Part shown: one piece after another, positions 1-26,283 of the stretch
Numbering within the stretch: the first letter of the stretch is position 1
Layout of the letters: each line of letters starts with the position of its first letter
Virus record (IMG/VR): IMGVR_UViG_2529292923_000024
Source of the DNA: a virus
Lineage: Duplodnaviria; Heunggongvirae; Uroviricota; Caudoviricetes
DNA length: 28,522 nucleotides
Strand: one strand, 5' to 3'
The notes under the pieces: generated by a model
Database searches by the model: none
Told to the model about the DNA's origin: nothing
The model's input: the letters and a program-made list of their open reading frames with translations, nothing else
Program-made: the position numbers and the translations under genes

Positions 1-420
1 ATGACGGATTATCAGCCATACAGGAAAGGAACTGTGCTTGCCCCAACTGGACCATGCAATCATCTTCATGTGATTTGTAATGATCCTGTTTATTACCCCG
101 TTAACGATTGTTATTGTGTTTTAGTTGTTAATATTTCTAGTATCAAGGATGGTGTCCCCCACGATCCGTCTTGCGTCTTGAATTCTGGTGATCATCGCTT
201 TATCAAGCATCCAAGTTATGTTGTTTACGCTGAAGCTATAATTTGGCGAGTGGATAACATGGTTAGAAAGCAGCGATCGGGTGAGATTTCTGTTCATGAT
301 GATATGCCAGAAGCTACATTCAATAGAATTCTGGACGGTTTTGATATCTCTGATGAAGTTACGCCAAAGAACCTTAAATTTAAAAATAAATATTGCGTAT
401 CATCTATTGATGATGAGTAA
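1..420 (+). CDS. hypothetical protein (139 aa), AT-rich accessory gene; may be 5'-truncated by the window edge
   Basis: ORF starts at window position 1 and ends TAA 418-420; AT-rich by eye compared with the flanking phage genes; no family recognised. Confidence 0.4.
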   Translation: MTDYQPYRKGTVLAPTGPCNHLHVICNDPVYYPVNDCYCVLVVNISSIKDGVPHDPSCVLNSGDHRFIKHPSYVVYAEAIIWRVDNMVRKQRSGEISVHDDMPEATFNRILDGFDISDEVTPKNLKFKNKYCVSSIDDE

Positions 421-459
421 ACAACAGGAATTGTTTCGGTATAACTTCTGGAGTTTTCT

Positions 460-633
460 ATGGAAGATCAAAAAGCAACCAAGCCACAGGTTAAGTTCGA
501 CACAATGAAAGCATTCGTAGGTATGGGTGCTGCTGTTGAAGTTCTGATGAAGGCTGCTCCTAATGCGTTCACTCACGCTACTGTCTCTGGTAAAGAGCAG
601 CAGGGTAAGCTTCGTCGTCTCAAAGCAGCATGA
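460..633 (+). CDS. hypothetical small protein (57 aa)
   Basis: ATG 460 preceded by GGAG about 10 nt upstream; 58 codons ending TGA 631-633; lies 40 nt after the 1-420 ORF and is followed directly by a strong terminator. Too short for the ORF track; translated by hand. Confidence 0.4.
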   Translation: MEDQKATKPQVKFDTMKAFVGMGAAVEVLMKAAPNAFTHATVSGKEQQGKLRRLKAA

Positions 634-652
634 TCATAGCTGGTGCTTTTTG

Positions 653-680
653 AAAACCCGCCTTCAGGCGGGTTTTTTCT
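653..680. terminator. bidirectional rho-independent terminator between convergent transcription units
   Basis: Stem CCCGCC (657-662), loop TTCA, stem GGCGGG (667-672), with an A-run upstream and T-run 673-678 downstream, so it is functional in both orientations. Confidence 0.75.
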
Positions 681-989
681 TTAGTGATTTTCTTTGCCCT
701 TCTGTTTGACTGTTCTGACCTGTTCCCACTCGATACGTCCTTCTTCTCGCCTTTTGTCTATGTATTCCGCAAGATCCTGAATATTGATGCAACGTTTTGC
801 TTTTTGTGATGTGCCGATGCGATATGTTGGAACGGGCAACTTACAAGCGTTTGCTTTTGCTTCTGCCGTGGCTGGACTCATACCAAAGTACTTTTGGCTA
901 ACTGCTGAGAGTTCAATGTTTGGGGTATTGAATTCAGCCATCAGTAAAAACAAGGTGTTCATAATTTTCTCCATCAAAACCGGCTGCAC
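681..989 (-). CDS. PrtN-family DNA-binding protein (excisionase-like)
   Basis: 102-aa ORF; the segment KLPVPTYRIGTSQKAKRCINIQDLAEYIDKRR resembles the PrtN/excisionase-like family as recalled; last gene of the leftward early operon. Confidence 0.5.
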   Translation of the reverse strand: MQPVLMEKIMNTLFLLMAEFNTPNIELSAVSQKYFGMSPATAEAKANACKLPVPTYRIGTSQKAKRCINIQDLAEYIDKRREEGRIEWEQVRTVKQKGKENH

Positions 990-7411: not shown

Positions 7412-7609
7412 ATGCGGAAATCCGACGTGATTAATTATTTCGGCGGAGTTTGTAAAACCGCCGAAGCCCTAGGTATTAAGCATCCGTCTGTTTCAGAGTG
7501 GCCTGAGATTATTCCTGAAGGCCGAGCGTACCAGTTAGAAAAAATTACTAACGGGAAACTGAAAGTTGACGTGTCTTTATATCAAAAGACTAACAGTGCT
7601 GCGGCATAA
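7412..7609 (+). CDS. cro: Cro-like repressor
   Basis: 65 aa; first rightward gene after OR; Cro/YdaS-like HTH (CKTAEALGIKHPSVSEW). Confidence 0.7.
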   Translation: MRKSDVINYFGGVCKTAEALGIKHPSVSEWPEIIPEGRAYQLEKITNGKLKVDVSLYQKTNSAAA

Positions 7610-7636
7610 AAACACCACAGAAATGAGGAATTAACC

Positions 7637-8221
7637 GTGGGTAAAGAACCTGAATGGAAAGTTGATAAACAACCAGCATGGCTGGTGGCAGCAATACGAA
7701 GAACGATTGCTGATTTACCTCATGGCTATGAGGAAGCAGCAGAAATTCTTGGTTTGTATAAATCTGATGATATCACCCCAGCAAAAGATCAATTGCATAA
7801 CAGACTGCGTAGCGGTGGGGATCAAATTTTTCCACTTGAGTGGGCCATGGTTTTACAGGATGCCAGTGGTACCAGGCATGTAACGGATGCGATAGCGCGT
7901 CGTAGTAATGGGGTGTTTGTGCCGCTGGTGGACATTGATGACATTGACAATGGTGACATTAATCAGCGGCTGATGGAGTCAATAGAATGGATTGGCAAGC
8001 ATTCCCAGTACTTACGCAAGGCAACTGCTGATGGAGTTATTGACCAGGCTGAGCGTGAGCAAATCGAAGAGAACAGCTACCAAGTAATGGCGAAGTGGCA
8101 GGAGCATTTAACACTGTTATTTCGTGTTTTTTGTGCACCGGAAAAGAGTAACGCCCGCGAGTGTGCAGCTCCGGGCGTCGTGGCGTCGATTGCTTCTGGT
8201 TGTGGAGAAACTAACGCATGA
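7637..8221 (+). CDS. CII-like phage regulatory protein (family assignment tentative)
   Basis: 194 aa; GTG start with a GAGGA RBS; in the position of cII immediately after cro; family recalled, not verified. Confidence 0.4.
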   Translation: MGKEPEWKVDKQPAWLVAAIRRTIADLPHGYEEAAEILGLYKSDDITPAKDQLHNRLRSGGDQIFPLEWAMVLQDASGTRHVTDAIARRSNGVFVPLVDIDDIDNGDINQRLMESIEWIGKHSQYLRKATADGVIDQAEREQIEENSYQVMAKWQEHLTLLFRVFCAPEKSNARECAAPGVVASIASGCGETNA

Positions 8222-25087: not shown

Positions 25088-25437
25088 GTTTTGTTGATGC
25101 GCCGTATCGTCGCTGTATTCCCTCATTAACAGAGACCGCAGCCCGACAGGGAGACTCCTCTGCGCGAGTGTGCGGGGATAATCAAAAACGATACACACCG
25201 GGGTTTACCGCGTTAACGGAGCGAGGCGTTGTCCCCTCATAGTCGCCTGTCCGGTGCGATGGTGGAAGAAGCCGGATGTTTATCACTATTAATTGATGAC
25301 ACAGAAATGGATTCATTGAATTTCAGCACGTTTTTGTATTCGTGTTATTGAACATCTGTTTATTTTACTTTTAACATATTGATAATAAAAAGAGCTGTAA
25401 ATCTTTAGATGAGTCGATTTTGTCCGGGGAAGTTCAA

Positions 25438-25578
25438 ATGGATTTTATGCTGACGGTTTCTGGTGTGGTTATCCTGTCCATTGCTTATACTGCAGATAAA
25501 TATGGCTGCCATTTGTTATCACGTATTGGCGCTTATTGTTCGTTGATGCTGATTTTCTCGTCGCTTTTTTTTGAGTAA
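25438..25578 (+). CDS. possible small hydrophobic peptide (46 aa)
   Basis: ATG with GGGGAAG upstream; MDFMLTVSGVVILSIAYTADKYGCHLLSRIGAYCSLMLIFSSLFFE; lies in an AT-rich region; coding status uncertain. Confidence 0.25.
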   Translation: MDFMLTVSGVVILSIAYTADKYGCHLLSRIGAYCSLMLIFSSLFFE

Positions 25579-25710
25579 GTTATATTAATTATAACAAATA
25601 ATTTTCTGTGTTATTTTTTCAGGCTATCCCGTCAGAGGGGAAGCCTGTACTGCCGGGGAGCGAATGGAAAACTGATGTGTCCGGTAACTGCGTGTTCTGT
25701 GAACACCATG

Positions 25711-25896
25711 TTACTTAATTATGTAATTCATACCCGAACTCTCTGTTGACAGCCTTCTTCTGCAGGCTTCAATAACCCACGCTGAAAAGTTTCCTGAACC
25801 TTTCAGATCAAGAGCGATGTTAATTTGTTCAATCATCTGGTTTGGAAATCGGATGTTGCGGGTTGTTGTTCTGCGGGTTCTGTTCTTTGATGACAT
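25711..25896 (-). CDS. putative ribbon-helix-helix (Arc/Mnt-like) DNA-binding protein
   Basis: 61 aa; basic N-terminus, then IRFPNQMIEQINIALDLKGSGNFSAWVIEACRRRL matching the beta-strand/helix/G-x-S/N pattern of Arc (FNLRWPREVLDLVRKVAEENGRSVNSEIYQRV); GGGGA RBS. Confidence 0.45.
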   Translation of the reverse strand: MSSKNRTRRTTTRNIRFPNQMIEQINIALDLKGSGNFSAWVIEACRRRLSTESSGMNYIIK

Positions 25897-26102
25897 AATG
25901 TTTCCCCATATTCAGTGTTGCTGATTTGTATTATCTGAAGTTGCTTTTACGTTAATTTGACGCAGATCAATTAATACGATACCTGCGTCATAATTGATTA
26001 TTTCTCGTGGTTTGATGGCGTACACACATGTTGTGATAAACCTTATATAGATGATAATCATTATCATTTCGTGGGTCCTTTCCGGCGATCCGACCGGTTA
26101 CG

Positions 26103-26114
26103 GGGCGGCGACCT
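26103..26114 (+). other. cosN cohesive-end site (lambda-type 12-nt GGGCGGCGACCT); cosB lies between it and Nu1
   Basis: TTACGGGGCGGCGACCTCGCGGGTTTTCGCTATTTATGAAAATTTT matches the lambda cos core as recalled; located about 170 bp upstream of Nu1 as in lambda. Confidence 0.75.
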
Positions 26115-26283
26115 CGCGGGTTTTCGCTATTTATGAAAATTTTTAGGGAAAAATCAGATCCGTTCTTCTTCTTTTTAACTGTTTGATTATCAATAGAATT
26201 TTAAAAATATAAAAGGATCTGACAAAGGCTGTTTTTGTTAGAAAACGCCATTTTCAGATCCTTTCTGGTTCCCGGGGGAGTGT

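Follow-up and report, generated by a model that had tools for sequence, protein, structure and literature searches.

What is the small gene that begins at the very first letter of the virus record IMGVR_UViG_2529292923_000024 (Caudoviricetes; 28,522 nt, here called the window in its full length), and with which other gene does it belong? An initial annotation, made from the letters alone, had combined two plus-strand open reading frames (ORFs) at this edge, one of 139 codons (positions 1-420, ORF139) and one of 57 codons (460-633, ORF57), into a single accessory module, and had found neither product recognisable. Both are real genes, as are the low guanine-plus-cytosine (GC) content of the first and the terminator behind the second; the two do not, however, form a two-gene module. 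Our analysis indicates with good confidence that positions 1-420 encode a PanT of cluster T6, the toxin in a type II toxin–antitoxin (TA) pair of the PanAT kind, whose antitoxin gene, panA, lies immediately upstream and is coupled to it via ATGA. Most likely, ORF139 and PanA are carried as a swappable cassette by a Shiga toxin (Stx) prophage, and the adjoining 57-residue gene is unrelated to them, so that the description as unrecognisable holds for ORF57 only.

The window edge splits the PanAT pair, and its first gene and promoter region lie upstream of position 1. Over positions 1-1000 the window matches two records with 100% identity: the Stx1-converting phage Lys8385Vzw (MT225100) and the Escherichia coli O103:H11 RM8385 chromosome. 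Lys8385Vzw was induced from RM8385, in which the prophage is located in dusA (PMC7946995). In both matching records panA, a gene of 573 nt with a 190-residue product, ends at window position 4 (7432-8004 of locus L001, from E. coli RM8385), which places 569 nt of it and the region upstream outside the window. Its TGA stop codon and the ATG of ORF139 share 4 nt as ATGA. Followed leftward from ORF139, as the initial annotation had proposed, the circular phage shows panA, attP and then the integrase gene. GenBank phage records start the gene at this ATG as well; RefSeq/PGAP (WP_014640052.1, 128 aa, ‘hypothetical protein’) starts it at the GTG at position 34, 11 codons late. Judged by sequence comparison ATG 1 is the true start, because the family N-terminus MTxYxPYRKGT is conserved with an invariant G10, because codons 1-11 differ from those of homologues with 86-87% identity by synonymous or conservative changes only, and because the first strand of the structural model starts at residue 11. 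The PanA product matches PF13274 (SocA_Panacea, the Panacea/DUF4065 domain) with an E-value of 2.2e-19 and 70.9 bits at a cut-off of 25.7, and RefSeq names it ‘Panacea domain-containing protein’. It has no N-terminal domain; past the Pfam match, residues 138-160 (CPEW-DP-S-PI) are conserved, and the charged tail varies more.

A pattern scan (HLH..C.DP) with one genome per species gave 37 loci encoding relatives of ORF139 (28-87% identity), which span Enterobacterales, Vibrionales, Methylococcales, Sphingomonadales and Rhodobacterales. Wherever enough upstream DNA was present (35 of 35 loci), a PanA homologue was found directly upstream, ending at the toxin start or a few nucleotides from it, and the 4-nt overlap is kept in most of these loci, including those of Enterobacter and Shewanella. 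The identities of PanA and PanT to the window pair co-vary across 33 loci (Spearman 0.82). We observed the pair in three unrelated contexts, namely the att-proximal position, a tail-gene cluster and a Shewanella island: in Enterobacter prophages a 73%-identical pair is placed between a Prok-JAB/NLPC_P60 (gpK-like) gene and a gpJ-like tip gene (L003-L007, 3432-4453), and the Shewanella pair lies inside an island that bears an integrase. ORF139 is paired with PanA rather than with ORF57.

Kurata et al. (2022) named the Panacea domain, predicted 1,268 PanAT loci with 88 toxin clusters and validated nine pairs (PMC8832971). In the part of their Dataset S1 consulted here, cluster T6 carries the HHpred annotation ‘EndoA/PemK/MazF-family RNAses’, the antitoxin comes first, mostly at a spacing of -4 or -1, and the entries include Proteus, Pluralibacter, Pantoea septica, ‘Yersiniaceae bacterium 2016Iso4’, Salinivibrio socompensis, Methyloprofundus and Beggiatoa; the validated T6 pair, from Pseudomonas moraviensis (PanA WP_083354365.1, PanT WP_083201923.1), is given there with the result ‘TA’ (PMC8832971). 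The ORF139 profile matches WP_025672779.1 (Salinivibrio, P0144) and WP_101821906.1 (2016Iso4, P0089), both of them T6 entries in that part of Dataset S1. Its E-values with T6-listed homologues range from about 1e-47 to 1e-58, and three of our loci with ORF139 relatives (L014, L015 and L027) come from genomes that the same part lists under T6. From the two exact accessions and the three loci we infer that ORF139 is a PanT of cluster T6. The P. moraviensis toxin stops growth, and the process that it specifically inhibits is 35S-methionine incorporation; the cognate PanA neutralises it, and the authors deduce that it cleaves mRNA or tRNA (PMC8832971). PanA–PanT complexes were seen in pull-downs for a subset of the validated pairs, which may or may not include that of P. 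moraviensis (PMC8832971).

The window pair shares with the T6 pairs a stand-alone Panacea/DUF4065 antitoxin without N-terminal domain, the order of antitoxin then toxin with an overlap of -4 (or -1), and a toxin of about 130-140 aa that is labelled ‘hypothetical’ and has a predicted MazF/PemK-like structure. At its N-terminus the PanA of the window pair reads MFCEEKVAQ, similar to MIFSEQKVAQ, which the authors had restored to the PanA of P. moraviensis (PMC8832971). A difference lies in the location: the window copy is found in E. coli, on a lambdoid prophage that converts to Stx1, and the validated pair is flagged ‘NotPhage’ in the consulted part of the dataset, which has no E. coli entry under T6.

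We identify ORF139 and PanA as a TA pair with good confidence. Alternatively, the pair might not be an autonomous TA system, with Panacea acting as an adaptor or sensor in the manner of SocA, or with ORF139 being a non-toxic RNA- or DNA-binding protein. Such a reading could draw on the weak match of PanA to NCBIfam SocA_antitoxin (E 0.022, far below the cut-off), on the many PanT candidates that were not toxic in E. coli (‘not Toxic’ entries in the consulted part of the dataset, PMC8832971), and on Ernits et al. (2023), who propose Panacea as a possible sensor (PMC10440598). The same authors report that stand-alone Panacea proteins can neutralise directly (PMC10440598). We consider this alternative improbable: in the part of the dataset consulted, the member tested from this toxin cluster is recorded as a true TA (PMC8832971), a tight overlap of -4 is characteristic of type II TA pairs, the divergence of PanA keeps pace with that of PanT, and the two genes travel together from one unrelated context to another.

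The next question concerns the activity of the toxin. The AlphaFold2 model of ORF139, built with 25 homologues, had a predicted local distance difference test score (pLDDT) of 92.3 and a predicted template modelling score of 0.85. When it was compared with the PDB by Foldseek, the best 50 matches were all MazF (best E 1.6e-3, probability 1.00, template modelling score 0.64 on the target), and in a viral structure library ‘PemK-like protein’ and ‘Endoribonuclease’ rank first. ORF139 has the SH3-like barrel fold of the CcdB/MazF superfamily and, as modelled, is of the MazF/Kid/PemK type. Across 51 diverse family members H21, D55, H65 and Y76 are invariant and C58, G63, F67, S72, G113 and S117 nearly so. 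H21, D55 and H65 are probably the catalytic set, together with S46/S47, whose equivalence to MazF T52/T53 would follow from our own extension of a non-significant hhalign register that sets H21 opposite MazF H28 and L22 opposite R29. A zinc site formed by H21, H23, C26, C58 and H65, considered for the close family, was dropped because H23 and C26 vary in the broad family.

With moderate confidence we take the mechanism of ORF139 to be that of an RNase. A toxin that is neutralised by PanA and acts otherwise, as a CcdB-like gyrase poison or on another target, appears unlikely, if a shade less so than a pair without TA function. In its favour, the family does not conserve the catalytic Arg29 of MazF and shows no detectable homology to MazF in sequence, and Ernits et al. 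point out that proteins may share a fold without sharing a function (PMC10440598). Against it, matches to MazF/Kid rank above CcdB in both structure methods, the tested T6 member specifically inhibits 35S-methionine incorporation (PMC8832971), and the invariant His/Asp/His would suit acid–base catalysis.

Several observations count against the assignment of ORF139 as a MazF-fold PanT, and we list them together. None of the 51 family members, ORF139 included, matches PF02452 (PemK_toxin) even at E<=1, and profile searches of the PDB sequences with the 25- and 51-sequence alignments gave no MazF match. A comparison by hhalign with MazF and ChpB of E. coli K-12 reached a probability below 1%, in what is, with a two-sequence alignment, a weak test. 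The catalytic residues of E. coli MazF are Arg29 and Thr52, and the first of these is not conserved in the ORF139 family as placed by this non-significant alignment. The MazF fold is in addition common to the gyrase poison CcdB. A search of PADLOC-DB 2.0 at E<=1 gave no match for PanA, ORF139, ORF57 or the neighbouring PrtN-like protein. Upstream of panA no convincing promoter or operator was found: there is one sigma-70 match of 9/12, and one 9-nt palindrome overlaps a weak -35-like hexamer. Finally, the link between ORF139 and the P. moraviensis toxin rests on shared membership of a cluster in the published dataset; the P. moraviensis PanT was not picked up by our HLH..C.DP genome scan.

ORF139 is under strong purifying selection, with a ratio of non-synonymous to synonymous change (pN/pS) of 0.08-0.09 against Enterobacter, as expected of a real gene. 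It has no meaningful match among Pfam, NCBIfam or PADLOC models and falls into phrog_19071, a PHROGs family of ‘unknown function’. A single-sequence query returned 62 clusters at 90% identity and a profile 205; an exhaustive search returned 2,891 representatives at 50% identity with E<=1e-3, and 1,111 with E<=1e-10. All members are about 130 aa long and named ‘hypothetical’, and these roughly 2,900 clusters are without a Pfam or NCBIfam model or a solved structure detectable by sequence. The PanAT cassette was found in 207 of 5,426 complete E. coli genomes (about 4%), always on the chromosome, and in none of the PLSDB plasmids; its E. coli carriers include Stx1 prophages of O103 and O157 strains. 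For the Proteus PanT homologue (cluster P0017) there are three accessions with the same prefix (AYY81064.1, AYY81154.1 and AYY82117.1), which suggests several identical PanT copies in one genome.

The following features, given with position and strand, lie at the left end of the window:
1..420, plus strand: ORF139, panT-like gene of 139 aa with ATG start; predicted MazF/PemK-fold toxin of PanT cluster T6.
1..4, plus strand: ATGA overlap, in which TGA at 2-4 is the stop codon of panA.
421..446, plus strand: 3' tail of the 1.2-kb PanAT cassette, with the right mosaic joint at 446/447.
460..633, plus strand: ORF57, 57 aa, ATG start; phrog_2741, not a PanAT component.
652..677, no strand assigned: intrinsic-terminator hairpin, separating the convergent plus-strand genes from the minus-strand PrtN-like gene.
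681..989, minus strand: PrtN-family, excisionase-like gene (PF11112, E 4e-23; phrog_1300 ‘excisionase’, E 8e-40).

How far the mobile unit extends can be read from related phages. mEp460 and Lys8385Vzw are 97-98% identical on both sides of one slot and unrelated between (5239-6446 of L002 in Lys8385Vzw versus an 804-bp segment, 2698-3500 of L047, in mEp460). The Lys8385Vzw segment begins about 190 nt ahead of panA and runs through ORF139 to 26 nt past its end; mEp460 becomes homologous to the window from position 447, 13 nt ahead of the ATG of ORF57. The cassette of PanA and ORF139 (1.2 kb) has 41.2% GC, as against a window mean of 50.0%, and only 1.7% of equal-sized window tiles are as low. 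From the sharp joints and the low GC content it follows that PanA and ORF139 form a discrete cassette with ORF57 in the flank. The region of these two genes is a horizontally acquired, TA-type accessory cassette at the att-proximal edge of the early region. Here the initial annotation was right about the kind of element and wrong about its make-up; the comparison of composition that it had called for sets the cassette apart from the window, and ORF139 did turn out to be the 3' gene of a longer conserved and described set, PanAT, a possibility it had raised for both ORFs. It had also called both genes AT-rich, which holds for ORF139 (38.3% GC, 30.7% at third codon positions) and not for ORF57 (47.1% GC). 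A second stretch of low GC content (0.38-0.41), with strong negative AT skew and no listed ORF of at least 90 aa, lies far from the cassette at 25200-26200.

The circular phage carries, in this order, dinI (minus strand), int (minus strand), attP, panA, panT, ORF57, terminator, xis (minus strand) and the early-left operon. In the lysogen attL is formed by a 5' dusA fragment just left of panA, and the integrase gene lies about 50 kb away at attR, next to an intact dusA. The missing integrase beside the excisionase-like gene, correctly noticed in the initial annotation, is therefore no anomaly: attP lies between int and xis, and the rest is due to the position of the window. The attL and attR junctions have in common a 107-bp 5' end of dusA with only 82% identity (7071-7177 of L001; 4760-4866 of L061); evidently, the phage brings its own replacement for the dusA 5' end. 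In related phages the slot between attP and xis is filled as follows:
Window, Lys8385Vzw and SKA5: PanA (190 aa) and the MazF-fold PanT, then ORF57.
phiSTEC1575-Stx2k (L062, 308-1352): a different Panacea protein of 157 aa and a 182-aa protein with a hydrophobic C-terminus.
PhiR40_1 (L063, 222-1212): a 179-aa protein and a YafO-family toxin (PF13957).
mEp460 and Salmonella dusA-site prophages: phrog_4350 and ORF57.
TA cassettes, including partners of PanA, are swapped within one phage lineage at this attP-xis slot.

ORF57 was assigned to phrog_2741 (‘unknown function’, E 1e-34), and comparison with Pfam, NCBIfam and PADLOC gave nothing meaningful. Its AlphaFold2 model (pLDDT 63, with short helices at 15-37 only) was too poor for a fold search. 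Purifying selection (pN/pS 0.10-0.17 against Enterobacter) indicates a real gene, and a GGAG motif lies 6 nt upstream of its ATG. The 48 homologue clusters in Enterobacterales keep the length of 57 aa; this length and the core FDTxKAFAGMGAAVEVLMKAAPNAF are kept in Escherichia, Salmonella, Enterobacter, Cronobacter, Atlantibacter, Franconibacter and Hafnia. Elsewhere, at the loci examined, a phrog_4350 gene encoding 177-179 aa lies 140-196 nt ahead of ORF57 (L047 2784-3687, L051 2774-3674, L048 2819-3674 and L055 2783-3674), and this pair occupies two slots, one attP-proximal by xis and one between the Q antiterminator and the lysis genes (holin). In the window phage the PanAT cassette took the place of phrog_4350 and left ORF57 behind, so that ORF57 could be transcribed only through read-through from panAT or from an unseen promoter. 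As no terminator lies between 420 and 460, co-transcription by read-through is the probable case.

On this evidence it is very unlikely that ORF139 and ORF57 constitute a two-gene TA-like, defence or anti-defence module in which one neutralises the other, as the initial annotation had it. What speaks for such a module is that the two genes stand on the same strand 39 nt apart (given earlier as 40), with no terminator between them and a shared one behind, and are probably co-transcribed. However, none of the 37 loci with ORF139 homologues carries an ORF57 homologue; many phages that lack ORF139 do carry ORF57 (as seen in mEp460, Salmonella, Enterobacter and Hafnia), there always after a phrog_4350 gene; the recombination joint at 446/447 parts the two; and the strictly conserved partner of ORF139 is PanA. 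ORF57 is a backbone neighbour or part of another two-gene unit. Two observations concern its usual companion. The C-terminus of phrog_4350 (VHIVEPVPELVQYYESFGF) gave by eye the impression of a GCN5-related N-acetyltransferase, which Pfam (E<=0.1) and PDB sequence searches did not support. In Hafnia prophages a RelA_SpoT-domain protein of 319-352 aa is encoded directly upstream of phrog_4350 and ORF57 (1650-2609 of L048, a metagenome contig); it matches the PADLOC candidate defence model PDC-S33 with E 1e-112 and may be a CapRel-like fused toxin–antitoxin.

On the right, the slot is bounded by the PrtN-like gene, a backbone neighbour outside the cassette whose counterpart in mEp460 is annotated as excisionase. 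With it begins a block that runs wholly on the minus strand from 681 to about 7316 and comprises the PrtN-like excisionase, a 3'-5' exonuclease (Rv2179c-like), DUF551, Ea22-like and YfdR/Q/P proteins and a LexA-family repressor; this is the early-left operon, to which ORF139 and ORF57 lie opposite as first described. The hairpin between the convergent genes (GAAAACCCGCC-TTCA-GGCGGGTTTTT, then TCTTT, at 652-677) had been called a strong bidirectional terminator. On the plus strand this was borne out by both fold and terminator scan (free energy -19.3 kcal/mol, z -3.6). On the minus strand the fold has -18.1 kcal/mol (z -4.4), but what comes after it is just UUUUC, and at 652-677 the terminator scan gave no site on this strand. 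The terminator is canonical for the plus strand and its U-tract marginal for the minus strand, where bidirectionality is plausible. An Rfam scan of RM8385 (6900-9100 of L001) gave sub-threshold matches only, which were drawn by this hairpin.

If the PanAT assignment is correct, PanA and ORF139 would be translationally coupled through the ATGA overlap, and ORF139, a predicted endoribonuclease cutting mRNA, tRNA or rRNA, would be kept inactive by PanA for as long as PanA is neither lost nor triggered. The pair may then, in the lysogen, stabilise the prophage and/or abort infection by other phages. This role, whether in prophage stabilisation or in abortive infection, is a conjecture, for defence because PADLOC is without a model for PanA or ORF139. 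A wider picture, which we regard as rather doubtful, would see the PanA/MazF-fold pair as an abortive-infection defence in which Panacea senses a cue of the superinfecting phage and releases the RNase, the attP-xis slot as a dedicated exchange site for TA or defence genes in dusA lambdoid/Stx phages, and ORF57 as a small leftover factor that might modulate its neighbours.

Among known systems, MazEF, PemIK (Kis-Kid) and ChpBS show no detectable sequence homology to ORF139. The antitoxin of MazEF and PemIK is of the AbrB/SpoVT type (MazE/PemI), whereas here it is a Panacea protein; the ORF139 family lacks conservation of MazF Arg29 and has its own invariants H21, D55, H65 and Y76, and ORF139 has two extra C-terminal helices compared with MazF. 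SocAB of Caulobacter crescentus, a type VI TA system, is similar in that its antitoxin contains the Pfam SocA_Panacea domain. SocB is an inhibitor of the replication clamp, and SocA is a ClpXP adaptor rather than a direct inhibitor. The window PanA fails the NCBIfam SocA equivalog with 14 bits against a cut-off of 190, and SocB constitutes cluster T10, which is unrelated to T6 (Kurata et al., PMC8832971). CcdAB of the F plasmid differs in that it ranks below the MazF/Kid matches, and the T6 representative blocks translation, not replication. Temperate phages are known to have hot spots for accessory (‘moron’ or defence) genes, e.g. the P2/P4-like variable loci. The slot described here resembles these in its fixed position, with attP on one side and ORF57, terminator and xis on the other, and in the alternative small cassettes of its relatives; it differs in that PADLOC recognises none of the window proteins and no defence phenotype is known for any of the cassettes.

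Taken together, the value of these findings is mostly corrective: about 4% of complete E. coli genomes carry an unannotated predicted toxin gene, whose RefSeq start is placed late. The PanAT family has already been described, and the window pair, a prophage-borne copy new to it, leaves the understanding of PanAT systems unchanged. An Stx-converting prophage that carries a MazF-fold toxin could differ in its retention, in its behaviour on induction or in the resistance to other phages.

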